From: an uncultured Dehalococcoidales bacterium
GTDB taxonomy: Bacteria; Chloroflexota; Dehalococcoidia; GIF9; AB-539-J10
Assembly: GCA_964654015.1 (NCBI GenBank)
Contig: CAZZHQ010000001.1
Span: forward strand, 6,455 to 70,454
Direction of reading: 5' to 3'
DNA: 64,000 nucleotides
Shown here: positions 12,300 through 43,479 of the stretch, in pieces
How the letters are laid out: each line of letters begins with the position of its first letter
Numbering within the stretch: position 1 is the stretch's first letter
Notes under the pieces: generated by a model
The model's database searches: none
Told to the model about the DNA's origin: nothing
The model's input: the letters and a program-made list of their open reading frames with translations, nothing else
Program-made: the position numbers and the translations under genes

Positions 12300-12428
12300 A
12301 GAGAAAGCCACCAAAAAGTGAAGGAAGCTCGCAATAACGGATTCGCCATCAATGAGATCTGGAGGCGAGTAACTTTATTCGCGGTATTGTTATTCTAACA
12401 GGCAAATATTTACAATTAGAGTGCGGGG

Positions 12429-13031: not shown

Positions 13032-13055
13032 TTACTGCAATACTCCAATATTATT

Positions 13056-15239: not shown

Positions 15240-15467
15240 GTTACCCCCCCCTTAATTAGCATTATTCCTATATATTACCTTAGTGATAGCTTTTTCTGTA
15301 GTTGCTATAATGCTGGAAAGATTATAGATTAAAGGTACAGAGGCTGAGATACATAGGGTAACACTCGTGGTATGTTATAGTAAGATAAGATAGGAGAAGA
15401 ACAAGCTAAGGAAATAGCCGGTATCTGAGGATTGGGAGAAAAGTCTTTATGGAGAATATGTATCACC

Positions 15468-16733
15468 ATGAAATACGAAATTGATGCCTTAATAGAAAAC
15501 GCCGTCTTTGCTGACGATGACAGTGCCAGAAAAGGGTACCAGCAGGAAATTCAAAAACTGGCCCTTGATCATGGTGTCTATCCTGCCAGCATCCAGGGCC
15601 TGTATAGCGCCGCCGGGAAAGGACTCTACAGCGGCAGGACGGTCCCTGCTATAAATATCCGTGGTATTACCTATCAGGTTGCGAGGGCTATCTTCAAAAC
15701 AGCTTTAAAAAATAAGGTCGGTGCTTTTATCTTTGAGATTGCACGCTCTGAGATAAGATATACTGCACAGAGTCCAAGTGAATATACCGCCTGCGTGTTA
15801 GCTGCTGCTATAAAGGAAGGGTTTCAGGGCCCAGTTTTCCTTCAAGGGGACCATTTTCAGGTTAACCAGAAAAGATATAGCTCAGGACCGGACAAGGAAC
15901 TGAAGGCCCTTAAAGAGCTGACCAAGGAGGCAATAGCTGCCGGGTTTTTTAACATAGACATAGATGCATCGACTTTAGTGGACCTGGAGAAGCAGACGCT
16001 CGAGGAGCAGCAGGAGGAAAACTGCCTAATAACTGCCGATATGACCAACTTAATACGAAAATTTGAACCCGAAGGAACAACCATTTCTATCGGTGGTGAG
16101 ATTGGTGAAGTTGGTAAAAGCAACAGCACCGTTGCTGACCTCAGGGCCTTTTTAGATGGCTATCTGCGTCGGTTAGAACCAAACGCCAAAGGAATCTCAA
16201 AAATTAGTGTACAAACCGGAACGAGTCATGGAGGCACAGTACTACCCAATGGCTCAGTAGCCAGCGTAAAGGTTGATTTCAAGACCCTGGAGGAGATATC
16301 CAGGGTAGCACGGGAGGAATACGGCTTAGCTGGTGCCGTACAACATGGCGCCTCTACTCTACCTGATGAAGCGTTTGATTTATTCCCGAAATCTGAAGCG
16401 ATAGAAGTGCATCTGGCCACCGGGTTTCAAAACCTTATCTATGATAGCTCCTACTTCCCGAGGGAACTGTTGGATAAAATCAATAAACACCTGATAGATA
16501 AGTATGCCGGCGAAAAATTGCCAGGAGATACCAAAGACCAGTTCCTGTATAAAACCAGAAAGAAGGGATTCGGTGACTTCAAGAAGGAGATGTGGCATAT
16601 GCCGGAAGAGAATTTAACGGCAATACGGGCTGCGCTGGAAGAACGTTTTATTTTACTTTTCCAGAAGTTGGGCGTGGTAGATACGGTGGGGTTAGTTAAC
16701 CAGTTTGTGGTTCAACCATCTCAATTGAAATAG
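15468..16733 (+). CDS. fba: class II fructose-bisphosphate aldolase (long form)
   Basis: PAINIRG, GDHFQ, GTSHGG and VQHGAST correspond to the class II FBA metal and substrate motifs. ATG at 15468 preferred over the TTG at 15432. Confidence 0.7.
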   Translation: MKYEIDALIENAVFADDDSARKGYQQEIQKLALDHGVYPASIQGLYSAAGKGLYSGRTVPAINIRGITYQVARAIFKTALKNKVGAFIFEIARSEIRYTAQSPSEYTACVLAAAIKEGFQGPVFLQGDHFQVNQKRYSSGPDKELKALKELTKEAIAAGFFNIDIDASTLVDLEKQTLEEQQEENCLITADMTNLIRKFEPEGTTISIGGEIGEVGKSNSTVADLRAFLDGYLRRLEPNAKGISKISVQTGTSHGGTVLPNGSVASVKVDFKTLEEISRVAREEYGLAGAVQHGASTLPDEAFDLFPKSEAIEVHLATGFQNLIYDSSYFPRELLDKINKHLIDKYAGEKLPGDTKDQFLYKTRKKGFGDFKKEMWHMPEENLTAIRAALEERFILLFQKLGVVDTVGLVNQFVVQPSQLK

Positions 16734-16758
16734 GCTGAGCTTAATTATTTTCCTTCAT

Positions 16759-17760
16759 TTAATGGAGTTCAAAGGGACTGAGTTTATCAAGCTTATTAAA
16801 GTTGTGCCAGGTATCTATCCAGCGGACGGTGCCAGAACTGGAGCGCATTGCAATAGACTGAGTCCGTGCGCCCCCACTAAAATAACTTACTCCCTTCAAT
16901 AATTCGCCGCTACTAACCCCGGTGGCAGTAAAATACACATCATCACAATCAATAAGGTCCTCTGTTTTATAAACCTTATCAACGTCAACTCCAGCTGCTA
17001 TTGCAAGCTCTCTTTCGTTGTCATCACGAGGCCAAGCCTTACATTGAAGACCACCCCCAATGCAGTGTATCGCCGCAGCGGAAAGGACTCCCTCAGACGT
17101 ACCACCGATACCCATAAGCACATCAACCCCTCTACCAGGAAGAGCTGCCTCTATGCTGGCTACAACATCACCATCAGAAATTAATTTAACCCTGGCACCA
17201 GCATTTCTAATATCCGTTAATAACTGCTCGTGGCGCGGCCTGTCTAAAACCACCACGGTAAGCTCTTCAATCTTTCTTCTCATGGCTCTGGCTATGTTCT
17301 TTAGATTTTCCGCCACTGGTGCGTTGATATCTATATAATCCTTTGCTTCCGGCCCGGTGATGATTTTATCCATATAAGCAAATTGTCCAGGGCAGTTTAT
17401 CGTCCCCTTAGTTGAAAGCGCTACTACGGAGATAGCTCCAGGAAGACCCCTGGAAACTAAGGTTGTCCCATCAATTGGGTCAACAGCAATATCAACCTGG
17501 AAACCAGAGCCATCACCAATATGCTCCCCTATATATAACATGGGGGCATGGTCTTTTTCCCCTTCGCCAATTATTACGGTCCCGTCTATCTGGATATGGC
17601 CCAAGACATAACGCATGGCAGCTACTGCCGCCTCGTCAACCAGGTTTTTATCGCCCTTCCCAAAATAACGGGCAGCAGCCATGGCCGCTGCTTCAGTGAC
17701 ACGAACTAGCTCTATAGCGATATTGCGTTCAATTGGCCCTTGATAATGCGTAGAATTCAT
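16759..17760 (-). CDS. glpX: class II fructose-1,6-bisphosphatase
   Basis: 333 aa with the GlpX N-terminus (ELVRVTEAAAMAAARYFGKGDKN), DPIDGT and GGTSEGV motifs. Confidence 0.9.
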   Translation of the reverse strand: MNSTHYQGPIERNIAIELVRVTEAAAMAAARYFGKGDKNLVDEAAVAAMRYVLGHIQIDGTVIIGEGEKDHAPMLYIGEHIGDGSGFQVDIAVDPIDGTTLVSRGLPGAISVVALSTKGTINCPGQFAYMDKIITGPEAKDYIDINAPVAENLKNIARAMRRKIEELTVVVLDRPRHEQLLTDIRNAGARVKLISDGDVVASIEAALPGRGVDVLMGIGGTSEGVLSAAAIHCIGGGLQCKAWPRDDNERELAIAAGVDVDKVYKTEDLIDCDDVYFTATGVSSGELLKGVSYFSGGARTQSIAMRSSSGTVRWIDTWHNFNKLDKLSPFELH

Positions 17761-17932: not shown

Positions 17933-18754
17933 TTAAACACGATTTTCCACCGGCCAAAGTCTATGAGTTTGCGTTATACCACCGTCAACAACAAAATTAG
18001 CTGCTGTTACATATTTGGCTTCATCCGAAGCAAGATATAAGGCCATATAGGCAACGTCCCAGGCCTCTCCCTGATGACCGGTAGGACACATGGCATCACG
18101 CTTTCTATGTGCTTCATCAATGTCCTTGCCATAGGCCTGTTTCACCGACGCCTCAATCATCGGTGTCCTCATGTACCCGGGTAAAATGGCATTTGCCCGA
18201 ATCCCTTTCGCTGCATACTGAATCGCTATGTCCCGGGTTAGTCCAATAATGGCTGCCTTAGTTGTCTCATATGAAATGGCAGGAACAGGCATAGCGCGTA
18301 TGCCAGCAACGGAACTAATATTAATTATTGAACCGCTTCCTTGCCTCTCCATATACGGAAGTGCATATTTGCATGTCAAGAACATGCTTTTTACATTAAC
18401 ATCCTCAGCCCTGTCCCAATCTTCCTCACTGAGTTCAACCGGTCCGCCAAATATTGCGATACCCACATTATTATGTAAAATATCAACTTTCCCATATACT
18501 TCAATACATTTTTCTACCATACTTTTGCAATCACCGGACTTACTAACATCGGCTTCAAACGTAATACAGTCGCCGCCTTCTTGCTCAATTATCTTGACGG
18601 TCTCTTCAGCAGCATCAAGTCTATTATCAGCCACCATTACTTTAGCTCCCTCCCTGGCATAAACGATTGCCGCAGCTTTCCCGTTACCCATGCCAGGGCC
18701 AGCCGAACCGGCTCCAGTAACAATCGCTACTTTTCCTTCAACTCGTTTTCCCAT
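17933..18754 (-). CDS. SDR family oxidoreductase
   Basis: TGAGSAGPGMG (TGxxxGxG), NNVG and YETTKAA (YxxxK). Confidence 0.85.
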   Translation of the reverse strand: MGKRVEGKVAIVTGAGSAGPGMGNGKAAAIVYAREGAKVMVADNRLDAAEETVKIIEQEGGDCITFEADVSKSGDCKSMVEKCIEVYGKVDILHNNVGIAIFGGPVELSEEDWDRAEDVNVKSMFLTCKYALPYMERQGSGSIINISSVAGIRAMPVPAISYETTKAAIIGLTRDIAIQYAAKGIRANAILPGYMRTPMIEASVKQAYGKDIDEAHRKRDAMCPTGHQGEAWDVAYMALYLASDEAKYVTAANFVVDGGITQTHRLWPVENRV

Positions 18755-18946
18755 ATTTTCCCTCCTTACGTTTTTAGTAAAGCCCTGTCATTAGACAGAC
18801 ATGGTTAAAATTTTCTGGCAGGTTGAGGGTGCCTCAGTCTAACATTAATGCTGGGCTGTTTTTATTGAGGACTAGGTCAACTTGTAGTGGACATCCAGCA
18901 CACTACTTGATAATCTCACTACGGTTAATGATCTTTGCCTCTACCT

Positions 18947-20065
18947 TTAGATCATTATTGGTAGTGAACCATATTTTTCTATAAGCTCAGCAATTCGACT
19001 AACTCGTTTTAGCGTCCCGTCAAAGGGCAGATTATCCCCCATACCTGCTACAAAATGATCCCCAGGAGCTATTTCTTTGAGCATATTTATTACATAATTA
19101 TCAAACTCCTCATCACTGTAAGTAGGCTCAAAAAGCGTAGAGGGGATTCCCCCCCATATCGTAGCTTTATCTCCCAGTGCTTTCCTCAACTCCGCAGTGG
19201 TAACCTGCGTCATAGGATGGGGAGTCCAAGCCTCAAAAACGTCTATGTTAGTATCTAATAAAAACGGAATCAGCCTTTTATTTTCACCATCTATATGGCT
19301 AACGGCAAACCTTCCATGGGCATGAAGAAACTCTGTTATTTCCTGAAACCAGGGAATAAAATATTTCTTGAACACAGGGGTATGTATATCATCACTCCAA
19401 TTTCCGCATACTCGAATAAGTTCCAAGTCAGTAGTATCCACTATCAGCTTATACTGCTTCCTTCGTAGAACAGCTACCAACTCAATAAGCTCTTCGACCT
19501 CTTCAGGATGATCCTTCAGTTCATAGAAGAAGCGTTCATAACCCATTAATACTCTCATGACATACTGCGTCGGACAATATCGCGTTGCTGCCAGCATCAT
19601 TCCGTCCTCGCCAATCTCATCACGTGCTTTTGCATATTGTTCAGGATTACTTACGGGCACAGTATTCGCTATTAAGTATTTAATCGCGGGATAATCTTCC
19701 CTGGTCTTAAAGAATTTTTCCGTTTCATACCCTACGTGAGCTCCTTCATAATTATTCAATACTACTTTCCTTTGAATAGCGCCTACCGGAGTAATAAACT
19801 TCGTTGTTGTACAAGGACCATCTACTTCCTCAATCACCTCTATCCCCTGATATCTCTCTTTAAGTACATGATGAAAGAGATGTTCAAAACCCACACCTAA
19901 ATCCTTGAGAATTTCTACTTCACTCCACCCTCTATATTTCTCAGGTAAAGTGCCATGGGCTGTATTGTAGTTATACCACAGGTCTATTCGGACTCCAAGA
20001 GGAACCTTACTCAAACGTTCACCCCTGATTGTTGCCAACAACTCCTGTTTGTGAGTTATCGCCAT
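18947..20065 (-). CDS. uroporphyrinogen decarboxylase (URO-D) family protein, putative methyltransferase
   Basis: 372 aa with UroD/MtaA-like length and C-terminal pattern (FEAWTP, GDNLP). Adjacent to the corrinoid protein. Confidence 0.6.
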   Translation of the reverse strand: MAITHKQELLATIRGERLSKVPLGVRIDLWYNYNTAHGTLPEKYRGWSEVEILKDLGVGFEHLFHHVLKERYQGIEVIEEVDGPCTTTKFITPVGAIQRKVVLNNYEGAHVGYETEKFFKTREDYPAIKYLIANTVPVSNPEQYAKARDEIGEDGMMLAATRYCPTQYVMRVLMGYERFFYELKDHPEEVEELIELVAVLRRKQYKLIVDTTDLELIRVCGNWSDDIHTPVFKKYFIPWFQEITEFLHAHGRFAVSHIDGENKRLIPFLLDTNIDVFEAWTPHPMTQVTTAELRKALGDKATIWGGIPSTLFEPTYSDEEFDNYVINMLKEIAPGDHFVAGMGDNLPFDGTLKRVSRIAELIEKYGSLPIMI

Positions 20066-20178
20066 TCTCTAATTACTTCCTCCCTTTCATTAGCTCTTTA
20101 CACATATAAATCGTTTCACTTGCATAATGCGCATAGGTAGCTGTAGGCTCCATTCTGTCCAATATTTTAATTCCAACT

Positions 20179-20814
20179 TTAACCGCTGATTAAAAACATA
20201 GCTTTTTTAACAGCCTCAACAGCATCTTTGGCATAGGCATCAGCTCCAACCTTGTCAGCAAATTCCTGTGTTACCGGTGCACCACCAATCATTACCTTCA
20301 CCTTGTCCCTTAACCCCTCGGCTTTGAGTGCGTTTAGAACCTCAGATACCATTGGCATCGTAAATGTCAGTAATGTCGATAACCCAAGTATATCGTAGTC
20401 CCCCTCTTTGACTGCCTTACAGAATTTTTCCTCCGGTACATCAATCCCCAGGTCTGTTACCTCCCATCCATTCTGCTCTAACATCATTATCACTATGTTC
20501 TTGCCTATATCATGCGCATCTCCAGGCACCGTCCCTATTAAATACTTGCCAACGGTTACTCCCTTCGCCTTAGACAACTCAGGTTTCAATAAAGCTACCG
20601 CTGTTTTCATGGCATTGGCCGCCATTAATAACTCAGGAAAAAACACATCCCCCTTCTCAAATTGCTCGCCTATTATCTCCATGCTGGGTAAAAGCCACGA
20701 GCCCAGTATCTCCTTAGCTGGTATCTTCTCCGTCATCGCTTCCTTCGTCAGCTTCACTGCATTCTTACTATCTCCAGCTACTACTGCTTCTGTCAATTTG
20801 TTGAAATCAGTCAT
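20179..20814 (-). CDS. corrinoid (cobalamin-binding) protein of a methyltransferase system
   Basis: 211 aa with an N-terminal helical cap plus a B12-binding Rossmann domain. Carries the DxHxxG motif (GDAHDIGKN), STLLT and IGGAPV. Confidence 0.85.
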   Translation of the reverse strand: MTDFNKLTEAVVAGDSKNAVKLTKEAMTEKIPAKEILGSWLLPSMEIIGEQFEKGDVFFPELLMAANAMKTAVALLKPELSKAKGVTVGKYLIGTVPGDAHDIGKNIVIMMLEQNGWEVTDLGIDVPEEKFCKAVKEGDYDILGLSTLLTFTMPMVSEVLNALKAEGLRDKVKVMIGGAPVTQEFADKVGADAYAKDAVEAVKKAMFLISG

Positions 20815-20943
20815 AATTGCTCCTCAACTAAAAATCATATTCGTCCCTTAAAACTTACCACCCTGCTGAATTTCTCATGATGCAGCATACCACCCTTGCT
20901 TAATAACCCACTGTAACTCCGTGTTTTTCATATAAAGAAAGCG

Positions 20944-22023
20944 TTACTTCCTTAGGTTTTCGTTATCCACCCTAGTATGTAATATGCTCCCTGGGAAATC
21001 CGAGATACAACTTTCAAGTGACTCAGACAATTTACCTTTTACCGAACGAATGATTAGAGGTCTCATAGAATTAATTTCCACAAAGGTCTCCATCAACTCA
21101 TCAATGCCAGGACCCATTGGATCCAGGGTAATCTGTAAAGCCTTAATTGTACTCTTCGTTGATATACTCCTCCAGTCATAGACACTAGCAACATAGCCTG
21201 AGTGCATATGAATAGAAGAATACTCAAAGGCATTAGCTATCCGTACATCATAGGGAACCAGGAACTTAGTATATAATTTGGGAGATAGCAGAGAAGCAAT
21301 ATCCTCCTGTGATCTACCTGTTAGTTCTGGAGCCCAAATTCCATAAGCATTGCAGTAGCCTCCTGCAAATTGGCCGGCATATTGGTGGTGCATTTCTACA
21401 GTCTTAATAAATATTCTACTACATAGATCGAGCAATTCATTTAGAAAACCACTGTCCGTTGGATTTAGCATACGAGTCACGAGATTTTCATATCCAATCA
21501 GAGCACCCAGCATATCTCCAGGGCCACGTAACAAGGTTTGGCTTATAGGATAGTTACCATGCAATCCCTTAAGTACTGCTTCTATTCCATTACTTAGTTT
21601 CTGAAACCACACATTTTTATCCAGTTTTTCTAGAATATCTCGAAGATGCTGCGGTAAATTTTTGAAATCAACATCAGGGGGATAAGCAACCATACTAGCC
21701 CCTCTGCCTAATGAAAATAACTTACAGCCGATGATCCCTTCCATCCAAGGAACAACATAGGCAAATTGCACAAATTCAAAGACATCGCCATTTATAATAG
21801 GTCGTCCTTGAAAAGCCTTAACGTAGGCTTCAGCTAGCCAATTAATATCCAGCATTTCAGGAGTGAAAGTACCCTTGATATTTTCATCGTAAACATGTTT
21901 TCTAAAAGGCTCACGACCAAAATCCAAGCTGCTGCGCAGTACTAATCCAGGTTTGTTATCCCAAAACTCACGGTGCGATTGTATTAATTGCTTTTCTTTT
22001 TCCATTTCTTTTTCCTCTGACAT
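20944..22023 (-). CDS. hypothetical protein, possibly a second URO-D-fold methyltransferase
   Basis: 359 aa. Weak resemblance only (VPWMEGIIGC, HMHSG); placed directly upstream of the corrinoid protein. Confidence 0.35.
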   Translation of the reverse strand: MSEEKEMEKEKQLIQSHREFWDNKPGLVLRSSLDFGREPFRKHVYDENIKGTFTPEMLDINWLAEAYVKAFQGRPIINGDVFEFVQFAYVVPWMEGIIGCKLFSLGRGASMVAYPPDVDFKNLPQHLRDILEKLDKNVWFQKLSNGIEAVLKGLHGNYPISQTLLRGPGDMLGALIGYENLVTRMLNPTDSGFLNELLDLCSRIFIKTVEMHHQYAGQFAGGYCNAYGIWAPELTGRSQEDIASLLSPKLYTKFLVPYDVRIANAFEYSSIHMHSGYVASVYDWRSISTKSTIKALQITLDPMGPGIDELMETFVEINSMRPLIIRSVKGKLSESLESCISDFPGSILHTRVDNENLRK

Positions 22024-22036
22024 ACCACTTCAATTG

Positions 22037-23308
22037 TCACGAAGTAATATCTTTATAGTTTGACGGGAAGTATTGAAGAGTAGCATCTTTAATAATCGCT
22101 ACACGGGCTTTATCTGGATAGAGCTTTTGTAAGAAAGTCATTACCTCTGACCAAGTCTGGCACCATGTAATCTTCTGGTAAGGAGCAAACCAATCTGCGT
22201 CAGACATGCTTACATAAGGGCTTAAGGTAAAGAAATGACTAATATTGTGCGGAAGCTCTGTCTTAGGCTTAAAAAGTCTACCTCCAATAGTATGCCCAAA
22301 GCTGCGTATCAAATAGTGCGTTACTTGCCCTTCAGGAAAGATTGAAATAAGAACTATAGTGGAGCCAGGTTTAGTTGCCAGTTTCAGGGAAGTGCCAATA
22401 GCTTTAGCTGCTTCACTGGCTTCTGAATAGGCATTAGCGATAATGATATCAGGGTTTTCCATACTAGGGGTTGCATAGTGTTTTTTTGCCATGGTGTTCA
22501 CAGCGTGGCGGTGTTCTAAAATCGGATCACCAACAAATAGGGCCGTTGTATCTCTGTTACTATTAGTAATCGCATCAACTTTTATCTGCAAACCTGACAT
22601 CTTAGCAATTTCTTCGATCTGTGGTCTAAGAAGACTTTCCTCATACCTACCTGGCTCCATTGTAGGGTCGATGGCGTTACCAGTGAAGTATTGCTTAACT
22701 ACATTATGAGTACCTTCGATAGTATCAATATGCGCAATACCTGGAGCAACTATTTTTCCACCTCCTCCAAAGCCATTAACACGATGCGGAACAATACACC
22801 CGATACCTATTTTGACATCACTATCAATAAAATCTGAATTGATAGATACAGGTATTTGCTTGCTTGTATGACCAAGGAATGTGCAATTTTCATAGGGGTT
22901 ATGATTATAGACACAGAATTTTTCTGTTATTCCTTCCCCTAATTTTTTCCTAAATGCTATCAAATTCATAACACCATGTGCTCCTATAGCACTGATGAAA
23001 CGGATCTTGTTATCAGGGATACCTCCTTCACGAAGTTCCTCAATTACGAAAGGAAGAATTCCGTAAATTTTAGTTGGCCGGGTAAGATCGTCAAATATTA
23101 TGACTGCGTCTTTTTTGCCTTTAGCAACATCACAAATCCTTTCACTTCCAATAGGATTTGAGAATGACTTTTTAATCTGCTCTTCGCTGATAGCAAGAGC
23201 ATCGTCACCATACATCTTGAGCAGGTTCACTTCCCATGAATCCGGGAAATCGAGCTCTATATCTATATCACCATACCACGGCATCTGAGGCAGTTTTACA
23301 ATTGACAT
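22037..23308 (-). CDS. LarA-like (lactate racemase N-terminal domain, DUF2088) protein
   Basis: 423 aa. N-terminal pattern (IIFDDLTRPTK ... AIGAHG) resembles the LarA family. Called from memory. Confidence 0.55.
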   Translation of the reverse strand: MSIVKLPQMPWYGDIDIELDFPDSWEVNLLKMYGDDALAISEEQIKKSFSNPIGSERICDVAKGKKDAVIIFDDLTRPTKIYGILPFVIEELREGGIPDNKIRFISAIGAHGVMNLIAFRKKLGEGITEKFCVYNHNPYENCTFLGHTSKQIPVSINSDFIDSDVKIGIGCIVPHRVNGFGGGGKIVAPGIAHIDTIEGTHNVVKQYFTGNAIDPTMEPGRYEESLLRPQIEEIAKMSGLQIKVDAITNSNRDTTALFVGDPILEHRHAVNTMAKKHYATPSMENPDIIIANAYSEASEAAKAIGTSLKLATKPGSTIVLISIFPEGQVTHYLIRSFGHTIGGRLFKPKTELPHNISHFFTLSPYVSMSDADWFAPYQKITWCQTWSEVMTFLQKLYPDKARVAIIKDATLQYFPSNYKDITS

Positions 23309-23383
23309 TATCTACTCCTTAAGACTATATCAATCCCCTACGATCGCTACTAATTTCAACTTAATAATTAAATAGGCAAGGGA

Positions 23384-24709
23384 TCATCTACTAAATAAAA
23401 GGTCAGGAATGAATGTCACAATTGAAGGAAAAAGCATTACAATAATGAGTCCAATCAACTGTAATAGTACAAAAGGAGCAACGCTGCCATAGATGTCCCT
23501 CATGCTAATTTCTTTAGGAGCTACACCCCTAATATAAAACAAATTCAAACCAAACGGTGGTGTTAGTAACCCCATTTCCATGTTAACAATGAATAAAACT
23601 CCAAACCAAACAGGGTCAAACCCCAACATTTTAATAATAGGGAGAAATATAGGTACAGTGATGAAAATAATACCATTAGTTTCCATTATCATCCCGAGGA
23701 GAATAAGTAGGACCTGAATTGCAATTAATACTGTCCAAGGACTGGTATTATGAGATTGAATCAAATCTTGAAGAAATTGAAGCCCACCGATAGCACTATA
23801 GAGTGATGATAGCCAGGCAGCACAGGTTGCTATCCAAAGTACCATTGCCGTAAGACGTAGCGTCTCTCGACCGCACTTTTTAATAAGTTCCAAATTAAAT
23901 GACCGATTAATCATAGAACAGATTATAGCGCCGAGTGCACCTACACCTGCTGCTTCTGTAGGGGTTGCAATCCCACTAAAAATTGAGCCAAGTACTGCCA
24001 TAATAAGGAAAATTGGCAATATTAGAGATCGAAGCTGTGGCAATATTTTCTTTATGGGCTTTTGTTCTTCTGCCGGAATTGCAGGGCCAATATTTGGCTG
24101 GAAGTGGCATCTAATTAAAACGTAAGCTATAAAAAGTAACCCTAACAAGATGCCAGGCAATATTCCTCCTGCAAACAGTCTGCCAACAGAGACACCTGCC
24201 AGAACACCATAGATAATCATAGTTACACTGGGAGGGATAAGTATTCCTAAAGCTCCACCAGCACATATGCAACCTATTGCAATACTTTTATCGTAGTTTC
24301 GCTTTAACATGGATGGCAAAGCAATAAGCCCCATACTGACAGTGGCGGCTCCGCTTATGCCTGCCATTGCCGCAAAAATCATGCAAATAAAAACAGTTCC
24401 TGCTGCTAGACCTCCTCTCACTCTTCCCATAACGTTGTATATTAAATCGTACATGGCGTCTGCAATACCGCTGTTTTGTAAGAAATTAGCCATTAAGTAA
24501 AAGAGTGGAAGAGCAAGCAATACTGTACTACGCATGGTACCCAGCGTTTGAGTTGCAACTATGTTGAGCCCATTTGGCCCCCACAGTAAAAAAGTAAAAA
24601 TAAGTGCTACAGAACCGATAGCAAATGCAAAAGGAACACCCAGTGCTAGCAGTAACATTAATGAGCCAAAAATAAGCAGGGTGGCGAGTCCTATACTAAT
24701 TTCAAGCAT
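23384..24709 (-). CDS. dctM: TRAP transporter large permease
   Basis: 441 aa, highly hydrophobic with about 12 TM helices. Overlaps the small permease gene by 8 nt. Confidence 0.85.
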   Translation of the reverse strand: MLEISIGLATLLIFGSLMLLLALGVPFAFAIGSVALIFTFLLWGPNGLNIVATQTLGTMRSTVLLALPLFYLMANFLQNSGIADAMYDLIYNVMGRVRGGLAAGTVFICMIFAAMAGISGAATVSMGLIALPSMLKRNYDKSIAIGCICAGGALGILIPPSVTMIIYGVLAGVSVGRLFAGGILPGILLGLLFIAYVLIRCHFQPNIGPAIPAEEQKPIKKILPQLRSLILPIFLIMAVLGSIFSGIATPTEAAGVGALGAIICSMINRSFNLELIKKCGRETLRLTAMVLWIATCAAWLSSLYSAIGGLQFLQDLIQSHNTSPWTVLIAIQVLLILLGMIMETNGIIFITVPIFLPIIKMLGFDPVWFGVLFIVNMEMGLLTPPFGLNLFYIRGVAPKEISMRDIYGSVAPFVLLQLIGLIIVMLFPSIVTFIPDLLFSR

Positions 24710-25217
24710 TTAATGTTCTCCCGGTTATTGCGGCGTATAGATCACGCAAGAATTTGGCAAAGGCTTGAATCAGTAACATTATCGCTGCTAGCGGGATAAT
24801 GCCTCTCAAAGGGTATAATGGAGGACCAAATACAGTATTAGTATGCTCTAATTTTGCGAACGAATAGAGGAAGGCATTACCACCTTTCCAGATCATGATG
24901 ATACAAATAATAAGAGGACATATAAATAATATGGTATCGATTATGCTTTTCGCTCTAAAAGGAAGCCGTTCATGCAATATATCGACGTTAACCATAGAAC
25001 CACGCCATAAACAGTAAGCTCCTCCAAGCATAAACTGGGCACCGAAAATAAAGGTGCTCAACTCATGTGCCCAGTTAGTAGGATTATTAAAAAGGTATCT
25101 AACTAATACCTCATAGATGAGTATTCCCATATAGATGAAAGCAAGTGGAGCGATCACCTGACCGCTCCACTTGCTAATGTTGTCAATAACCCTTATTAAA
25201 CCTTTAAGCCCTTTCAC
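24702..25217 (-). CDS. dctQ: TRAP transporter small permease
   Basis: 171 aa, 4 TM helices, positioned between the DctP-like and DctM-like genes. Confidence 0.8.
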   Translation of the reverse strand: MKGLKGLIRVIDNISKWSGQVIAPLAFIYMGILIYEVLVRYLFNNPTNWAHELSTFIFGAQFMLGGAYCLWRGSMVNVDILHERLPFRAKSIIDTILFICPLIICIIMIWKGGNAFLYSFAKLEHTNTVFGPPLYPLRGIIPLAAIMLLIQAFAKFLRDLYAAITGRTLNA

Positions 25218-25233
25218 TAACTTCCTTACCTAA

Positions 25234-26358
25234 TTAATCAATTTTATAATCAGTGTACCCTTTGAACCTAAGATAATCGGTAATTAATTTCATGGCTTCT
25301 TTAGATCGTGGTGATTTCACAGCTATTGAATCCCAAACAGCCTCAGCCGCGGCTACCATCTGTGGATAGTCATCATCGGTTATGTAGGTACATTCAAGCC
25401 CCTCTTCCTTCATCTTTTCAACAGCGCTAACACTACCATATATATCAATTAAGTAGTTTTGTGTCATTAGATAATTTGTCGTGCAACTATGAACAATACC
25501 TTGAATATCTGGTGGTAATTTATCCCACGCTTCCTGATTGACAAAAGTATCATATGAGAGCATCGCGTCCAAAAGCCCCGGATACACAAGATATGGTGCA
25601 ACTTCATACCACTGATGTTCGTATAGGGTTTGCTCAGAACCCCACGTAGCAGCATCTGCGGTACCAGTTGCTAGTCCTGTATAAACTTCGCCACCGGGTA
25701 TATAGAGAGTAGAGGCTCCTAACTGTTCAACAAATTGTGCATAGGTAGTGTGTGTACGAATCTTCAACTTGGAAAGATCTTCTACGCTGTAAACTGGTTT
25801 GGTAGAGATCAAAAATACACCTCGGCACGCAGCTAAATCAAGTAGATGAAGACCATTTTGTGCATAACTCTCTGTATAAAAGTCCTTTAGACCGTAATTA
25901 TAATAGACTAATAATAAATCTGTTAAATTACGATATGCAAGCGGAGGATTTGCGGCTTCAATTTCAGGAATTGTGTCACGGTGGTAACCTGGAGAGCTAA
26001 TCCCCATTTCAAACTGCCCTTGAATTGCTGCATCAAACGTGTCTAAATCAGGGCAGAGAGCTCCTGGCGCATAAAGTTCAATCTCTAAACGGCCATCAGA
26101 TAGACGTTCAATCTCCCTAAGCATTGCCTCATGAAGATTATAAGATTCACTGGCAGGGGGGCTAATGTCTTGACATCTCCATTTAATTACCTCTTGCTCT
26201 GGCGCAGGAGTTGGTACTTGAGTTGGTGCTGCGGTTGGCGCTGTAGTTGGCGCTGTAGTTGGCGCTGGTGTTGGCGCTGGTGCTGCTTTGGGAGCACAGC
26301 CAGCAACAAGCAAGGCAAAAATGGTAATTGCTATTACTATTGCTAACCTGAATTTCAT
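25234..26358 (-). CDS. dctP: TRAP transporter substrate-binding lipoprotein
   Basis: Lipobox LVAGC, an Ala/Pro/Thr linker, then a ~320-aa periplasmic binding domain. First gene of the operon. Confidence 0.75.
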   Translation of the reverse strand: MKFRLAIVIAITIFALLVAGCAPKAAPAPTPAPTTAPTTAPTAAPTQVPTPAPEQEVIKWRCQDISPPASESYNLHEAMLREIERLSDGRLEIELYAPGALCPDLDTFDAAIQGQFEMGISSPGYHRDTIPEIEAANPPLAYRNLTDLLLVYYNYGLKDFYTESYAQNGLHLLDLAACRGVFLISTKPVYSVEDLSKLKIRTHTTYAQFVEQLGASTLYIPGGEVYTGLATGTADAATWGSEQTLYEHQWYEVAPYLVYPGLLDAMLSYDTFVNQEAWDKLPPDIQGIVHSCTTNYLMTQNYLIDIYGSVSAVEKMKEEGLECTYITDDDYPQMVAAAEAVWDSIAVKSPRSKEAMKLITDYLRFKGYTDYKID

Positions 26359-26649
26359 CGTTTCCTTTACCTCCTTAATAATTATTCACATTACCCAATC
26401 CAAGTATATCCTTCACATATACTTCACCTCCATTTATATAATAAGAGAGTTCAGAAAACAGAATTATGACAGATGATATTAATTGTTAAATAGTTGCATA
26501 TAGTGAAACTATTATTTATAATAATGAAACACATCATGAAAGTTTAACATTAATTATGATTTTGTCAAGGAGAATATGTAAAAATATTATATATTCTATT
26601 CAGTGTAGTGTGATAGTCTACGGTATTAATTAGATGTCAAAAGGGAGAT
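26359..26649. promoter_or_regulatory. AT-rich divergent promoter region between the TRAP operon and iclR
   Basis: 291 bp non-coding between divergent starts. Repeated (G/A)TGAAAC half-sites at 26503-26510, 26524-26530 and ATGAAAGTTT at about 26537-26546. Confidence 0.4.
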
Positions 26650-27414
26650 ATGATTAGTAATTTAAATAGCAAACCTAAATTAGTCAATTCTATAAGTGCA
26701 AGTGCTGAAATCCTGCAGATCCTTAAAGGTGGGTTTTGCAGAATTTCAGATATTTCGATTGAGCTTGGCATACATAAGTCAACAATCCATAGAATACTGA
26801 AATCATTGGTATTTGTCGGTCTAGTACAACAGGATCTAGTAACTAAGAAATATGGATTAGGGTATCTGGTTTTTAACTTGGCTTCTAATCCTATGATAGC
26901 TCACCAAAGGTTAGTAATGTGTGCATATGAGGAAATGAAAAGACTAAGGGATTTGAGCAATGAAACTGTTGCGCTTCATGTCCGCGTTGGGGTAGAGAGA
27001 ATGTGTCTAGAAGAAATACCTAGCCTTCAGACTCTGAAATATGAGATCGGGAAAGGTTCGATATCCCCTATTTATTTGGGATCACTAGGTAAAGCCATTC
27101 TTTCAGAATTAACTGAAGAAGAGTTAAGAATCGTTCTAAATAACATTAAGCTAGTACCATTTACAAAAGCAACTATTACTTCTAAGAAGGATTTAATTGA
27201 GGAAGTTAATAAATCAAAGATAGCAGGCTATGCATTGAGTTTTGGTGAGCGCTTTCCTCATAGTGCCTCTATTGCGGTACCTGTTAAGAACTACATGCAG
27301 GAAGCCGCAATCAGCATTTGTGGCCCTGATAATCGTTTATTGGATCCTGTCATGTACGCAAAAGAAATGATAATTACTGCAAGTAAGATAATGGAGAAGT
27401 ATACAAGAAACTGA
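26650..27414 (+). CDS. IclR family transcriptional regulator
   Basis: N-terminal wHTH (ISDISIELGIHKSTIHRILKSL) plus a C-terminal IclR effector domain. 254 aa. Confidence 0.85.
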   Translation: MISNLNSKPKLVNSISASAEILQILKGGFCRISDISIELGIHKSTIHRILKSLVFVGLVQQDLVTKKYGLGYLVFNLASNPMIAHQRLVMCAYEEMKRLRDLSNETVALHVRVGVERMCLEEIPSLQTLKYEIGKGSISPIYLGSLGKAILSELTEEELRIVLNNIKLVPFTKATITSKKDLIEEVNKSKIAGYALSFGERFPHSASIAVPVKNYMQEAAISICGPDNRLLDPVMYAKEMIITASKIMEKYTRN

Positions 27415-27630: not shown

Positions 27631-28572
27631 ATGATATACGGTGAAGGTAAATATAGATACGAGCTAGTAGAGGGATGGGGGAAGTATCCCGAAGGGTGGG
27701 AATATATTGATGTGGCCGGAATTTCCGTCGATGGGCAAGACAGGGTATACGTATTGAACAGGGGAGCTCATCCAATTATGGTCTTCGATCGCAATGGCAC
27801 ACTTGTCGACTCATGGGGAGAGGAATTCTTCGGCAGGGCTCATGGCAGTTGTACCGGGCCTGATGGCTCAATTTACTGTACGGACGACATTGATCACACA
27901 GTATCTAAATTCACCCCGGAAGGAAAACTGCTGATGATGTTAGGAGAGAAAGGGGTACCTTCTAATTCCGGGTACGTGAAAAAACCGGACCTATTTGAGA
28001 GCCTGGCCACTATACAACAGGGAGCTCCTCCATTCAACCGTCCGACAGGTGTAAGCCTTTCTTCCACCGGTGATATCTTTATAACGGATGGTTATGGTAA
28101 CGCACGGGTACACAAATTCAGCCCTGATGGCAATTTGTTGCTTTCCTGGGGAGAGCCTGGCACCGCACTCGGTCAATTTGTGCTTCCCCATAATCTCTGG
28201 GTAGATAGAAAGGACAGAGTATGGGTTGCTGATCGAGAAAACAGACGAATCCAGATTTTCGACCTACAGGGTAATTTTCTTACCCAGTGGACGAATCTCG
28301 GACGTCCAACTGACGTGATAATTGATGATGATGACATTGTATATGTCTCTGAACTAGAGCAGACGGTAAGCATATTTACCATGGAAGGTAAATTGCTGAC
28401 ACGCTGGGGAAGTCCAGGCGAAACGAACCCTGAGGCGTTGTTCGATGCCCCTCACGCTTTAGCAATTGACTCGCATGGTGACATCTACGTTGGGGAGGTC
28501 AGCTTCACACATGGCAAGCATAATAAAGGGCCCAAGACCATACAAAAGTTTGCCAGGATAACTCAGGCCTGA
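27631..28572 (+). CDS. NHL-repeat beta-propeller protein
   Basis: Six repeats of the (V/I)Y(V/C)xD type (VYVLNRG, IYCTDD, IFITDGYGN, VWVADRENRRIQIFD, VYVSE, IYVGE). Strong GGAGGAAGG SD. Confidence 0.75.
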   Translation: MIYGEGKYRYELVEGWGKYPEGWEYIDVAGISVDGQDRVYVLNRGAHPIMVFDRNGTLVDSWGEEFFGRAHGSCTGPDGSIYCTDDIDHTVSKFTPEGKLLMMLGEKGVPSNSGYVKKPDLFESLATIQQGAPPFNRPTGVSLSSTGDIFITDGYGNARVHKFSPDGNLLLSWGEPGTALGQFVLPHNLWVDRKDRVWVADRENRRIQIFDLQGNFLTQWTNLGRPTDVIIDDDDIVYVSELEQTVSIFTMEGKLLTRWGSPGETNPEALFDAPHALAIDSHGDIYVGEVSFTHGKHNKGPKTIQKFARITQA

Positions 28573-28626: not shown

Positions 28627-29631
28627 CTAGCTGTCCAAAAATTTTGCCAGTTCGTCTCGCTCGAACCGTGGTAAATCCTTCGTGCCTGTTGCAGTGTGCA
28701 ACTTCACTCCATACTTTGCCTCGAAAACTTTACCTATTACAGTTGCTTTAATTCCTGCCCCAAGCAACTCCTCTAATAGTCTGGAAGTGTCAGAGGCAGG
28801 CAACGTAATAAGTAGAGCCCCGGAGGCCAATAACCCGAGAGGGTCAACTGAAATCCCTTCGCAAATAGTCCTGCATTCAGGAAGCAGGGGAATCTTTTCT
28901 TCTTCCACTAAAATGCCAACTTTGGCGGCCACGGCTATTTCCAAAAGCCCCGTAGCCAGACCTCCCTCTGTTGGATCATGCATTGAATGTACATTGACAG
29001 TTGAACAGGCAATCTGTGCCTCTCGTAGAACACTGATTCCAGGAGAAAAAAGATAGTCCGCCGCTCTGGCGACAACTTTATCACTAATTCCAGCAGAAAA
29101 AAGAGATTGTTTTGACTCCCGGGCAAGGACGGCAGTCCCTTCTATGGCAATCCCTTTGGTAAGTACGATATCATCGCCAACCATAGCTCCTGACGTGGAT
29201 ATAATAGGCCGCTGCCCAGTTTCTCCCAGCATACAGCCAACAACTATTGGTCTATTCAAATCAAAAACTGTCTCCGTGTGCCCTCCAACAGGGGTAATGC
29301 CCAGCGAGGCACATGCTGCAATAATCTGATTGAAAATAGCCTCGACCTCCTGTTCATTAAAGCTTTCAGGCAGGAGGACTGTAGACAGGAACCAGCGAGG
29401 GACTGCCCCCATAGTAGCTATATCATTGGCATTAACGTTCACCACGTACCAGCCAATCAGGTCAGTTGCGAATGTCACTGGATCTGTTTTTACCACCAGT
29501 ATCTTGCTGTCGAATTGAATCGCCGCAGCGTCTTCGCCGATGCGAGGACCCAGCAGAACACGTTCATCTTCTATTTTTATTTTTGCCAGCAGTTTTTCCA
29601 GTAATGCCGGTGACAGTTTGCCAATTTTCAA
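28627..29631 (-). CDS. AIR synthase-related (HypE/ThiL/PurM superfamily) protein
   Basis: 334 aa with GEDAAAI ... TDP ... NDIATMGA ... GGHTE, typical of the PurM-like ATP-binding fold. Confidence 0.7.
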   Translation of the reverse strand: MKIGKLSPALLEKLLAKIKIEDERVLLGPRIGEDAAAIQFDSKILVVKTDPVTFATDLIGWYVVNVNANDIATMGAVPRWFLSTVLLPESFNEQEVEAIFNQIIAACASLGITPVGGHTETVFDLNRPIVVGCMLGETGQRPIISTSGAMVGDDIVLTKGIAIEGTAVLARESKQSLFSAGISDKVVARAADYLFSPGISVLREAQIACSTVNVHSMHDPTEGGLATGLLEIAVAAKVGILVEEEKIPLLPECRTICEGISVDPLGLLASGALLITLPASDTSRLLEELLGAGIKATVIGKVFEAKYGVKLHTATGTKDLPRFERDELAKFLDS

Positions 29632-29792: not shown

Positions 29793-31499
29793 ATGATAGA
29801 GCCAGTGCTAGACCCCAGAGGAATTCAGGAAAGGCCCAATATCAGGCTAGCCCCCCGTCCTACCCTGGAACGATTACGCCAGGGGCCTGTCCTTTTCTAT
29901 GATAACGGCAAGTTATCATTCCGTAACTGCGGTGAGATTTTTGTACGAATTAAAGAGAACCTTGCTAAAGAAGGAATCAGCAATTTCCTCGATTACAGTG
30001 AGACGGTTCGAGGGAAAACCAACCAGGAATTAAAAGACTATGCCTCCATGCTGGCAGAGTCAAAACCAGTAGCAGCAGTGCTCGCCCTGGGTGATGTTGG
30101 AGTCAGCCCGGCAACAACCATAATAACCATCGCACTGGAAGAACTGGGAGTGCCAAGCGTGTATATAACCGCTCCTCCAGGAACAGATTTAGCCAGGGCA
30201 GTCGCTTTCTATCGAGCCGGTCAGCTCTGCCTTTGCCCTATAGATATATACCAGGGCAGCGCAATTGCGGATATCCATCGAGAGATTGACGGACAAATGC
30301 AATGTATACTGGAATCTCTCACGCTTCCCTCCGACGAAATAGGGAAAAGAGCCTGCCTTGATTTTAAACTTGATGCTGAAGCCCCGGCGAAAGATGGATT
30401 TCTGCGATTCAAAGGCAGCTTAAAACTTGATACAGGGGATATTTCCGAACCAGCAGCAGGTATGGAGGAGGTGATGGACCTTTTCGATTCACTCCACCTG
30501 GGAGATGGATTGCCCATCGTAGCACCAACACAGAGACGTTATGAACGCATGCTCTCCTTCTGCCCCTACGAGCCAGGCGAGGTTCTTGCTACCGAAATCG
30601 GCCCTACCGGGAAAGACATAACCATCAGGGACGTGGCGATAGCGGCTGTAATGGCAGGATGCAAACCAGGGTATATGCCAATCCTTGTAACCGCATTCAA
30701 AGCCCTGGCCAATCCGAAATATAATTTTCTTCAGTCTGTAACTACTTCCCACCCGGGAGGCAACCTGATTCTGGTCAGTGGCCCTCTGGCAGAGGAGTTA
30801 GGCATTCATGGCGGACAGGGCTGTCTTGGTCCCGGATTTACTGCCAATATGACCATCGGAAGGGCGGTGAATCTGGCTATTATTAATGTGTGCCGCGCGG
30901 TGCCAAATTATGCAGACCTGGCCTGTCTCTCCTCCTCAGCAGAGCTGAGCTATTGTTTTTCAGAAGACCCAGAGCTGAGTCCCTGGCCCACTATTAACGC
31001 CGAGCATTATAACTCTGAAACGACAACCGTGTACGTACTTAAGGCTGAGCCTCCTCACGACATAATCGACTTCTTGAGCCAAACGGCTGGTGATTTACTG
31101 GACACCCTGGTTGGCAGCTGCACTACTCTTGGCAGCAATAACTCCTATATCCCCGGTCCTCTCATTATAGTTATTACCAGAGACCATGCATGGCTTCTCA
31201 ATCGTGAAGGATGGGATAAAAACAAGATTCGAGAGCATATTCACGCCAGGGTCCACCACGAAGCACCCATGGTTCGGGGCAGGGGATTAGTCCCTGTCCG
31301 CCCTGCAGGTTTCAACGAGCTTCATCCCATTCCTGTTACCCGTTCGCCAAAGGATGTGGAGATAGTTGTAGCCGGTGGCCGTGGAGGACACTCATCGGTT
31401 ATTCTGCCCTGGGCACTACACAGTGAAGCTATCATCGAACCGGTCCTTCTTCCTGATGGCAAAGTACCGAAAGGTATTGCCGACTTCCAGCAGAAGTAA
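29793..31499 (+). CDS. conserved hypothetical protein (568 aa)
   Basis: Long ORF with a GGAGG SD and no family I can name. The GDGLPIV.PT ... AVMAGCKP ... motifs look like a conserved domain of unknown function. Confidence 0.6.
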   Translation: MIEPVLDPRGIQERPNIRLAPRPTLERLRQGPVLFYDNGKLSFRNCGEIFVRIKENLAKEGISNFLDYSETVRGKTNQELKDYASMLAESKPVAAVLALGDVGVSPATTIITIALEELGVPSVYITAPPGTDLARAVAFYRAGQLCLCPIDIYQGSAIADIHREIDGQMQCILESLTLPSDEIGKRACLDFKLDAEAPAKDGFLRFKGSLKLDTGDISEPAAGMEEVMDLFDSLHLGDGLPIVAPTQRRYERMLSFCPYEPGEVLATEIGPTGKDITIRDVAIAAVMAGCKPGYMPILVTAFKALANPKYNFLQSVTTSHPGGNLILVSGPLAEELGIHGGQGCLGPGFTANMTIGRAVNLAIINVCRAVPNYADLACLSSSAELSYCFSEDPELSPWPTINAEHYNSETTTVYVLKAEPPHDIIDFLSQTAGDLLDTLVGSCTTLGSNNSYIPGPLIIVITRDHAWLLNREGWDKNKIREHIHARVHHEAPMVRGRGLVPVRPAGFNELHPIPVTRSPKDVEIVVAGGRGGHSSVILPWALHSEAIIEPVLLPDGKVPKGIADFQQK

Positions 31500-39565: not shown

Positions 39566-39566
39566 A

Positions 39567-43456: not shown

Positions 43457-43479
43457 TTCAAATATCTACTCCATCGCTT

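Follow-up and report, generated by a model that had tools for sequence, protein, structure and literature searches.

Corrinoid-dependent methyltransferase systems set which methylated compounds anaerobes feed into folate-dependent one-carbon metabolism, and the substrates known for bacteria are aromatic methyl ethers, quaternary amines, methanol, methyl halides, and methyl sulfides. The characterized bacterial methyltransferases I (MTIs) MtvB, OdmB, VdmB, MtoB, and CdmB belong to the uroporphyrinogen decarboxylase (UroD) superfamily, and their partners are a corrinoid protein (CP), a tetrahydrofolate (H4F)-binding methyltransferase II (MTII), and an activating enzyme (AE) (PMC13222342). Here, we describe a gene cluster from an uncultured Dehalococcoidales bacterium in which a corrinoid protein is encoded between two UroD-fold proteins of 359 and 372 aa. 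The cluster lies in a 64-kb stretch of DNA, referred to at its full length as the window, and also encodes the three components of a tripartite ATP-independent periplasmic (TRAP) transporter and a homolog of LarA, the racemase of the nickel-pincer nucleotide (NPN) type. The reading that we favor, and hold with about even confidence, is that the cluster is a corrinoid-dependent demethylation front end for a TRAP-imported methylated 2-hydroxycarboxylate, in which both UroD-fold proteins are of the MTI type. Two things are new, a UroD-fold family that lacks annotation and a recurrent, hitherto undescribed link of a corrinoid module to NPN-type LarA and TRAP import; a search of the literature returned nothing on UroD-type corrinoid methyltransferases of Dehalococcoidia or on TRAP-linked corrinoid systems of this kind, and no paper joining LarA or nickel-pincer with corrinoid.

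Similar to the O-demethylase and haloalkane systems of bacteria (MtvABC of Moorella, OdmABCD and Vdm of Acetobacterium dehalogenans, MtoABCD, and CdmBCA), the cluster has a UroD-superfamily MTI candidate beside a two-domain corrinoid protein of about 210 aa, which would be two of the components of an MTI/CP/MTII/AE system. The other two, the H4F-binding MTII and the RACo/RamA-type activator, are present beside homologous modules at related loci and absent from the window. Neither tblastn nor Pfam scans of all window open reading frames (ORFs) of at least 150 aa recovered a RACo/RamA-type activator, a pterin-binding methyltransferase, MttB, or FolD in the 64 kb, in agreement with the original prediction, made from the sequence of the window, that neither a RamA-type activator nor a methyl-H4F-side enzyme is encoded here. 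The main differences from the bacterial O-demethylase systems, apart from these absences, are that the window has two UroD-fold genes, barely related to each other or to known MTIs, and that the module is coupled to a TRAP transporter and an NPN-type LarA. This coupling points to a charged, chiral, probably nonaromatic or hydroxy-acid substrate rather than to phenyl methyl ethers or methyl halides.

Other described systems resemble the cluster in part. In the methanol:coenzyme M system of methanogens, MtaABC, the corrinoid protein works with a UroD-fold partner, MtaA; however, the window has no match to MtaB, the methyltransferase 1 (MT1) of that system, in Pfam or NCBIfam, neither of its UroD-fold proteins has a His-Cys-Cys zinc site, and coenzyme M is not expected in this bacterium. 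The MttB-superfamily systems for quaternary amines (MtgBCA, and MtpB, MtcB, or MtyB with MtqC and MtqA) use the same kind of corrinoid protein, and the family of the 359-aa protein shares loci with MttB homologs, FolD, and the enolase-superfamily protein MR_MLE elsewhere, but in the window the candidate methyltransferases have the UroD rather than the MttB fold. The type 1 mlp clusters of Firmicutes, which comprise MtaA-like proteins, a corrinoid protein, and a Ram/RACE activator, likewise group several UroD-superfamily paralogs around one corrinoid protein; the Mlp proteins, which carry His-Cys-Cys sites, have been connected with methyl-sulfur or methyl-selenium metabolism (PMC10418091), whereas the window proteins lack such sites and have TRAP and LarA genes as neighbors instead. 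Compared by description only, MtgB of Bathyarchaeia, a "novel MT1" for lignin-derived methoxy aromatics, is also a methyltransferase without recognized homology that works with a corrinoid protein, but its length is about 300 aa, and it has been reported from Bathyarchaeia only (PMC10989822).

The corrinoid protein is predicted to be a cobalamin-binding methyl carrier. It is composed of a B12-binding_2 cap (PF02607, E = 6e-21) and a B12-binding Rossmann domain (PF02310, E = 9e-27), and the DxHxxG motif is present as GDAHDIGKN. The best NCBIfam models, MtgC and MtbC, both score below cutoff, and the best match in the PDB is a predicted cobalamin-binding protein (1Y80, E = 3e-51) from Moorella. 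At related loci (L003–L008 and L019 among the 106 described below), the corrinoid proteins encoded beside members of the 359-aa family are 77–90% identical to that of the window. Domains, motif, and both neighboring folds were all reproduced, and the original picture of a DAHDIGKN corrinoid protein between two UroD-fold proteins stands.

The 359-aa protein gave no match in Pfam, NCBIfam, or the PDB, searched both as a single sequence and as a profile of 39 sequences; matches to TetR, AraR, and Sestrin in sequence searches were rejected as noise, and it was the fold search that settled its identity. The AlphaFold2 model has a predicted local distance difference test score (pLDDT) of 95 and a predicted template modeling score (pTM) of 0.93. 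Foldseek returns six matches to this model, all to uroporphyrinogen decarboxylases, at probability 1.0, with TM scores of 0.56–0.62 and 9–12% identity, and these decarboxylases are its sole significant structural matches. PF01208, the Pfam URO-D family, matches 18 of the 39 relatives weakly (best E = 2e-6) and does not match the protein itself. As modeled, the 359-aa protein is a divergent UroD-fold barrel, a member of the fold superfamily outside the Pfam family, and we predict it to be a substrate:corrinoid methyltransferase. The UroD-like assignment that the original prediction had entered with a question mark is thereby borne out. Polar residues conserved in the family (Cys224 and Asn225; Gln239, Glu240, and Asp241; His272-x-His274; and Asp301) fall just past successive predicted strands, a placement that fits a barrel active site, as expected; an R166-G-P-G-D170 motif is conserved as well.

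An exhaustive profile search shows that the family is real but modest in size, with 285 clusters (at 50% identity) below an E value of 1e-30 and 659 below 1e-10. Two types are distinguished, the 351-type, 61–97% identical to the window protein, and the much commoner T364-type, 45–58% identical. Distant relatives (about 30% identity) are found in metagenome-assembled genomes of Bathyarchaeia (L010 and L012). Every gene of the cluster is preceded by a strong Shine-Dalgarno sequence except the 359-aa ORF, the annotated start of which (22023) has none. An AAGGA lies upstream of the seventh codon, an ATG at 22005, and a relative that is 97% identical (P0001) is 353 aa long; for both reasons the true start is probably Met7, giving a protein of 353 aa. 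The family, invisible to Pfam and NCBIfam, gains a testable hypothesis of function from the cluster.

The 372-aa protein is matched by PF01208 (E = 1e-10, 41.4 bits vs a gathering score of 23.9), in its C-terminal half only. Its AlphaFold2 model has a pLDDT of 93, and Foldseek places UroD enzymes and MtaA (4AY7, rank 2) at the top, with TM scores of 0.60–0.65, and MetE lower down. The best genuine match of the family profile to a PDB sequence is CdmB (9RUI, E = 0.007), the chloromethane MTI of Acetobacterium and a UroD-superfamily protein (PMC13222342). In NCBIfam, MtaA models reach E values of about 1e-3, far below cutoff. The residues invariant in the family are His257-x-Asp259-Gly-Glu261; Asn222, Trp223, and Asp225; Asp275 and Glu278; and Gly343, Asp344, and Asn345, and no Cys is among them. 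We predict that the 372-aa protein is a second corrinoid methyltransferase. Annotation with hidden Markov models and structures places both proteins in the UroD fold, as a TIM barrel in the case of the 359-aa protein, with 10–14% sequence identity between either protein and the UroD structures. A common family was considered for the two and rejected, with an hhalign probability of only 16% over 83 columns; barely alignable, they are treated as separate families.

The putative metal sites of the two proteins bear on the nature of the methyl donor. UroD-superfamily enzymes that methylate thiols or selenols have a His-Cys-Cys zinc site, and in those directed at O-methyl groups the Cys residues are replaced by carboxylates or nonligands (PMC10418091). 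By this rule, both window proteins look unlike S-methyltransferases and unlike coenzyme M methylases of the MtaA type, because the His-Cys-Cys site is absent from both. The putative metal sites, of a non-thiol type in both families, favor donors of O-methyl groups over those of S-methyl groups. Possible substrates also include methoxylated aromatic 2-hydroxy acids, as well as S-methyl 2-hydroxy acids; of the latter, 4-methylthio-2-hydroxybutyrate or its dimethylsulfonio form was considered and kept as a minority option, given that neither methyltransferase has a His-Cys-Cys site.

LarA enzymes act on C2 of 2-hydroxy acids (PMC11770544), and members of the superfamily are known for lactate, malate, 2-hydroxyglutarate, gluconate, and hydrophobic 2-hydroxy acids (PMC7583248, PMC11770544). 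The window LarA has a Lar_N domain (E = 2e-48) and all of the catalytic and cofactor residues: Arg75, His108, His174, Lys184, and His200 of the Lactobacillus plantarum enzyme are kept as Arg77, His111, His175, Lys185, and His201, and these five are invariant in three cluster-linked homologs. It differs in score and at the specificity positions. All curated models score far below cutoff, the best equivalog being LarAH6 malate racemase at 177 bits against a cutoff of 500, and by equivalog score the protein lies outside all of the characterized groups named above. The residues after the second catalytic His are Arg-Val in the window, Pro-Met in the L042 homolog, and His-Pro in that of L061; Arg-Val fits none of the listed specificity patterns, and the equivalents of Trp358 and Thr359 are not alignable. 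The protein is a 2-hydroxyacid racemase or epimerase homolog of the NPN type, in a subfamily without an assigned substrate. Genes for larB, larC, and larE were not recognized among the window ORFs of at least 150 aa, the window being 64 kb of the genome only.

The role of LarA, which the original prediction called unexplained, can now be described in terms of its neighbors. An importer, a LarA homolog, a corrinoid gene, and a UroD-fold gene occur together in at least five further architectures, with 38–68% identity between the LarA proteins, or in at least six counting the window. In L042 and L061, a LarA homolog (39% and 38% identity, respectively) is encoded directly before a member of the 359-aa family and a corrinoid gene, and L061 repeats the core order of LarA, family member, corrinoid protein, and URO-D protein, with an ABC importer before and a GntR regulator after it. 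By this distribution, LarA is a conserved, recurrent partner of methyltransfer modules and no mere add-on. An MR_MLE gene upstream of T364-type genes in L006, L025, and L030 suggests that the pairing of a stereo-inverting enzyme with these methyltransferases may be a general theme. The description of the superfamily in PMC11770544 does not mention methyltransferases, cobalamin, or B12. To our knowledge, hundreds of LarA homologs have no known substrate, and the linkage gives them a concrete physiological context for tests of function.

The clade of the window LarA comprises roughly 1,900 homologs. LarA homologs of the same clade also adjoin UxaA/SuyAB-like pairs of SAF and GD_AH proteins (GD_AH being the galactarate dehydratase/altronate hydrolase family) and sugar-type importers. 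A pair of this kind is present in the window at 56429–56734 (+) and 56731–57891 (+), where a SAF-like small subunit of 101 aa overlaps a GD_AH gene by 4 nt, as in a UxaA/SuyAB-like heterodimer; LarA homologs have such a pair at their side in L103, L104, and L106 as well. A second, very divergent LarA-superfamily protein of 418 aa is encoded at 33668–34924 (−), with a Lar_N match (E = 9e-11) in the N-terminal part only, and adjoins genes for a class I/II aminotransferase and a carbon-nitrogen hydrolase (34991–36187 and 36210–37103).

The TRAP transporter has all three of its components, DctP (PF03480, E = 6e-43), DctQ (PF04290, E = 2e-27), and DctM (PF06808, E = 3e-91; TIGR00786 at 359 bits, above cutoff). 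DctP has a lipobox, LVAGC, followed by a Pro/Thr/Ala-rich tether, and the Arg of its KIRT motif aligns with the conserved Arg of lactate-binding 2ZZV and of 4PE3, presumably the clamp residue known as Arg147 in SiaP. The closest solved relative, 4UAB, an ethanolamine binder, has Phe at this position. The retention of the carboxylate-clamp Arg implies that the imported compound is an organic acid, the predicted ligand of DctP, and upholds the earlier suggestion of carboxylate import through the TRAP system. A more precise substrate was sought among the best solved relatives of DctP, the ligands of which include ethanolamine, lactate, 2-oxo acids, and glucuronate; the set is mixed, and the carboxylate clamp alone is readable.

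Additional evidence is provided by gene neighborhoods. A total of 106 related loci were fetched. The scan of a genome collection gave nine loci, mostly distant, and the scan of metagenomes was far more productive; the homologs carry the labels Dehalococcoidales, Dehalococcoidia, and Chloroflexota. In about half of the loci in which such pairs were counted (about 50 of 99), the gene immediately before that of a corrinoid protein of about 211 aa is of the T364- or 351-type. The remaining components of a methyltransferase system recur around this pair: behind the corrinoid gene, a RACo-type activator is encoded in L031, L050, L055, and L056, a Pterin_bind methyltransferase in L073, and both proteins in L048, and the family gene itself is directly followed by RACo and a pterin methyltransferase in L007, L049, and L058. 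In L003, L006, and L044, the pair shares the locus with MttB homologs and two FolD genes. Three paralogs surround one corrinoid gene in L017 and L019.

Orthologs of the 351-type (66–75% identity; L006, L017–L023, and one further contig) are invariably found behind dctQ-dctM, with a T364 paralog and then the corrinoid gene after them. The order of family member, corrinoid protein, and homolog of the 372-aa protein is repeated in L024, L035, L045, and L063. Orthologs of the 372-aa protein (59–61% identity) are found directly after dctPQM and a corrinoid gene, with a LarA homolog beside them. In L100–L102, such an ortholog is followed by a Lar_N protein, more divergent still than the LarA homologs counted above, and by a corrinoid-MttB pair, and in L100 the cluster is preceded by MTHFR-FolD-FTHFS. 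In L103 and L104, the corrinoid and UroD-fold genes number three each, one of the latter having no Pfam match, and the cluster also has two split SAF and GD_AH pairs and a LarA homolog 50% identical to that of the window. In L105, the order is dctP (56%), dctQ (65%), dctM (67.5%), corrinoid (54%), URO-D (351 aa), and larA (68%); its LarA is the best-preserved ortholog of the window protein on a usable contig. By these identities, L105 pairs orthologs of the window transporter and racemase with another UroD-fold protein as the candidate methyltransferase. Since the same combination of genes recurs in independent loci, it is not due to chance.

Two of these loci have further features. Between dctM and the corrinoid gene of L105 lies a 58-aa remnant (3289–3462, 50% identity) of the homolog of an NHL-repeat β-propeller protein, which in the window is encoded beside iclR (27631–28572, +) and is transcribed in lake samples; the remnant hints at rearrangement of a shared ancestral locus. 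In L006, two conserved ORFs of 220 and 347 aa, neither with a Pfam match, follow the corrinoid gene (11981–13732), and these may be further components of such systems.

Taken with the carboxylate clamp, fold and neighborhood support the original proposal of a corrinoid-dependent methyl-transfer unit coupled to carboxylate import. In the mechanism that we propose, the ligand of membrane-tethered DctP would be a methylated carboxylate, most probably a 2-hydroxy or polyhydroxy acid that is chiral, and its import would be the task of DctQM. The LarA homolog would interconvert C2 stereoisomers, bringing the form found in the environment to one usable by stereospecific enzymes. The 351-type and 372-aa proteins would both act as substrate-side MTIs that transfer a heteroatom-bound methyl group to Co(I) of the single shared corrinoid protein, perhaps from two different methyl groups or two related substrates. 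From there, the methyl group would pass to tetrahydrofolate through a pterin-binding MTII encoded outside the window, and Co(II) formed by oxidation would be rescued by a RACo/RamA-type activator, also encoded elsewhere; both of these proteins would be shared with other methyltransferase modules. The SDR (short-chain dehydrogenase/reductase) encoded at the end of the gene run would perhaps oxidize a hydroxyl group of the demethylated product, and the IclR regulator would probably sense the substrate. Methylated sugar acids or aliphatic hydroxy acids would fit the SAF and GD_AH neighbors and the sugar-type importers of the LarA clade, a regulator that is KdgR/BhcR-like, and an SDR that resembles sugar dehydrogenases, the last two likenesses being weak.

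Several observations weigh against this proposal. Gene content, folds, motifs, recurrent linkage, and transcription in the lake are what the data show; methyl transfer by either UroD-fold family is something that we infer from fold and neighborhood only. We likewise infer that both proteins have an MTI role, in which order the steps occur, what kind of substrate is used, and that IclR exerts control. Neither MTII nor activator is encoded within the window. The TRAP systems of most related clusters are only 27–44% identical to that of the window, which suggests that these clusters probably serve different substrates and that the analogy is one of class. Some LarA homologs of this clade have no methyltransferase partner, as in L106, where an ABC importer and a GD_AH lyase are the neighbors. 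T364 paralogs very often accompany another MTI-type gene (MttB, URO-D, or 351-type), a pattern also compatible with part of the family having a shared MTII-like role on the acceptor side. Finally, no RNA contig covers the gene for the 372-aa protein in the four metatranscriptomes described below, in which the contigs are too short to prove a single transcript and the junctions seen are dctP/dctQ and the 3′ end of the corrinoid gene.

The strongest alternative, which we regard as possible, is that the triad is a self-contained MT1/corrinoid/MT2 system like MtaABC, with the 351-type protein probably as MT1 and the 372-aa protein probably as the second methyltransferase (MT2), acting onto tetrahydrofolate or a thiol. 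A corrinoid gene flanked by two nonidentical UroD-fold genes is what this arrangement would look like; the MT2 of methanogens, MtaA, has the UroD fold and is the rank 2 structural match of the 372-aa protein, the order of family member, corrinoid gene, and 372-aa homolog is repeated in the four loci named above, and no pterin-binding MTII is encoded in the window. Similarly, the T364 paralog that always lies between the 351-type and corrinoid genes in 351-type loci has the look of a constant partner. However, the characterized bacterial MTIIs bind H4F (PMC13222342), and related loci carry a Pterin_bind methyltransferase beside the module. The 372-aa family, with its invariant His-x-Asp-Gly-Glu and no Cys, is without the His-Cys-Cys zinc site of thiol-methylating MtaA types (PMC10418091). 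In addition, no methyltransferase gene other than that of the 372-aa ortholog adjoins the TRAP and corrinoid genes in L100–L102, which counts against an MT2 role because a substrate-specific cluster needs its MT1.

Two substrate-side enzymes are thus judged at least as likely as an MT1/MT2 pair. The two-MTI arrangement is favored because characterized bacterial MTIs are of the UroD superfamily and MTII binds H4F, because each protein has orthologs encoded behind a TRAP system by the first methyltransferase gene or by the only one, and because the three paralogs per corrinoid gene in L017 and L019 cannot all be MT2. Of the three-component MtaABC/Odm-type reading in the original prediction, the corrinoid methyl-transfer unit holds, and the assignment of the flanking proteins to MT1 and MT2 is not established.

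That two unrelated modules merely lie side by side, a TRAP/LarA hydroxy-acid unit (with or without the SDR) and a mobile methyltransferase/corrinoid cassette for a freely diffusing donor, is unlikely. The methyltransferase/corrinoid pair is indeed modular, being seen with MttB, FolD, RACo, or MR_MLE without TRAP or LarA, a LarA of the clade occurs without a methyltransferase in L106, and the gene order differs between the window and L105. Nevertheless, importer, LarA, corrinoid protein, and UroD-fold protein come together in the further architectures described above, and in the window, as in L105, the TRAP and LarA genes have the methyltransferase genes set between them or alongside. The spacer from larA to the 359-aa gene is just 13 nt, and every 351-type ortholog directly follows dctM. 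The original prediction had held that the same triad elsewhere without TRAP or LarA neighbors would speak against it; corrinoid pairs of this sort exist as paralogous modules with MttB, FolD, or RACo, but not among the 351-type orthologs. It is highly improbable that the UroD-fold proteins are cofactor-free decarboxylases like true UroD and the B12-binding protein a sensor or cobamide store: true uroporphyrinogen decarboxylases do rank first among the structural matches of both proteins, but identity to UroD is as low as noted above, the corrinoid protein is built like a methyl carrier in its two domains and its motif and has methyltransferase corrinoid proteins as its closest relatives, and RACo, pterin methyltransferases, MttB, FolD, MTHFR, and FTHFS are among the family neighbors.

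If the two-MTI proposal is followed further, the cluster could represent a previously unrecognized anaerobic route, in which aliphatic methoxylated hydroxy or sugar acids are O-demethylated by cob(I)amide with a new Pfam-less UroD-fold methyltransferase and an integral LarA epimerase that matches stereochemistry. This extension, which we consider doubtful, is hinted at by putative metal sites that are carboxylate- or His-based rather than Cys-based, by the SAF and GD_AH lyases and sugar-type importers beside LarA homologs of the clade, and by the weak likenesses of the regulator and the SDR noted above. Were it true, it would be the first functional link of the nickel-pincer and cobamide cofactors. 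More broadly, the cluster type points to methylated chiral hydroxy acids as a new substrate class and to a sink for carbon and methyl groups in stratified lakes and sediments, habitats rich in Dehalococcoidia.

DNA of the window is found in lake-water, salt-lake, and marine-sediment metagenomes, and RNA contigs at least 99% identical to seven of the eight genes of the cluster are present in four lake metatranscriptomes. All of dctP is spanned by RNA contigs in the four metatranscriptomes, with one contig crossing the dctP/dctQ junction, and in two runs the dctP RNA extends 101–119 nt upstream of the ATG (to 26459–26477). Further pieces cover dctQ (24727–25121), dctM, larA (22359–22714), the 359-aa gene (21229–21577), and the 3′ end of the corrinoid gene (20164–20314), where the RNA runs 15 nt into the next spacer. 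For the SDR gene, there is a single contig in one run (18241–18413). These contigs show that genes of the cluster are transcribed in nature, so that the pathway is probably active in the lake.

The features of the locus are collected in Table 1. An ORF check at nine positions found all nine ORFs where the original prediction had placed them, and its run of eight minus-strand genes from dctP to the SDR gene, with a divergent iclR gene, was reproduced together with the domains and the 8-nt overlap of dctQ and dctM. The spacers are 16 nt between dctP and dctQ, 75 nt between dctM and larA, 129 nt between the 359-aa and corrinoid genes, and 113 nt between the corrinoid and URO-D genes. The weakest link of the run is the 192-nt spacer between the URO-D and SDR genes.

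Table 1. Features of the cluster and its control region, by position in the window
Feature	Position	Strand	Domain or basis
SDR oxidoreductase gene	17933–18754	minus	adh_short_C2
URO-D family protein gene (372 aa)	18947–20065	minus	PF01208
Corrinoid protein gene	20179–20814	minus	B12-binding_2 + B12-binding
359-aa (351-type) UroD-fold protein gene	20944–22023	minus	structure match
LarA homolog gene (423 aa)	22037–23308	minus	Lar_N
dctM, large TRAP permease	23384–24709	minus	PF06808, TIGR00786
dctQ, small TRAP membrane subunit, GTG start	24702–25217	minus	PF04290
dctP, TRAP solute-binding protein (374 aa)	25234–26358	minus	PF03480
Divergent control region	26359–26649	none	291 bp, 26.5% GC
iclR regulator gene	26650–27414	plus	HTH_IclR + IclR_C

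The gap between dctP and iclR, described in the original prediction as AT-rich, has the measured GC content given in Table 1 against 44.5% for the window as a whole. It has promoter-like hexamers on both strands and several palindromes, with inverted repeats at 26489–26513 (10-nt arms and a 5-nt gap) and 26571–26597. IclR is the presumed local regulator, by virtue of its divergent position; the nearest NCBIfam models, BhcR, KdgR, and PcaR, are all far below cutoff. Rfam detects no cobalamin or other riboswitch in the cluster and, in the window, only two tRNAs at 39.5 kb, with no rRNA gene. No plasmid match was found for the window, and the idea of a mobile element is not supported.

Membership of the SDR gene in the unit is uncertain. 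It lies on the same strand, as expected for the operon originally proposed, but behind the longest spacer, and it is not conserved beside related clusters. The protein is matched by adh_short_C2 (E = 2e-60) and by no specific equivalog. Its relatives were consulted for a substrate and were uninformative, the best PDB match (5JC8) being an uncharacterized putative SDR and the others generic glucose, 3-oxoacyl, and steroid dehydrogenases. Directly downstream of the SDR gene, at 14124–17760, are genes for a phosphofructokinase, a class II aldolase-like protein, and a GlpX fructose-1,6-bisphosphatase; glpX is on the same strand as the SDR gene, 172 nt off, with no terminator-like site in the gap.

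Elsewhere in the window, a 568-aa protein with only a weak UGSC-family match in its N-terminal region (29793–31499, +) adjoins an AIR-synthase-related protein similar to HypE, ThiL, and SelD (28627–29631, −). A 338-aa ORF at 10648–11664 (+) matches positions 207–452 of the 524-position model for sodium:neurotransmitter symporters and may be a truncated or mis-started gene. At 41606–46722 (−), a 1080-aa restriction-modification methylase of the Eco57I/MmeI kind is encoded beside an OLD-family AAA/TOPRIM nuclease, a pair that is likely a defense islet, about 2 kb from the two tandem tRNA genes at 39492–39642 (−).

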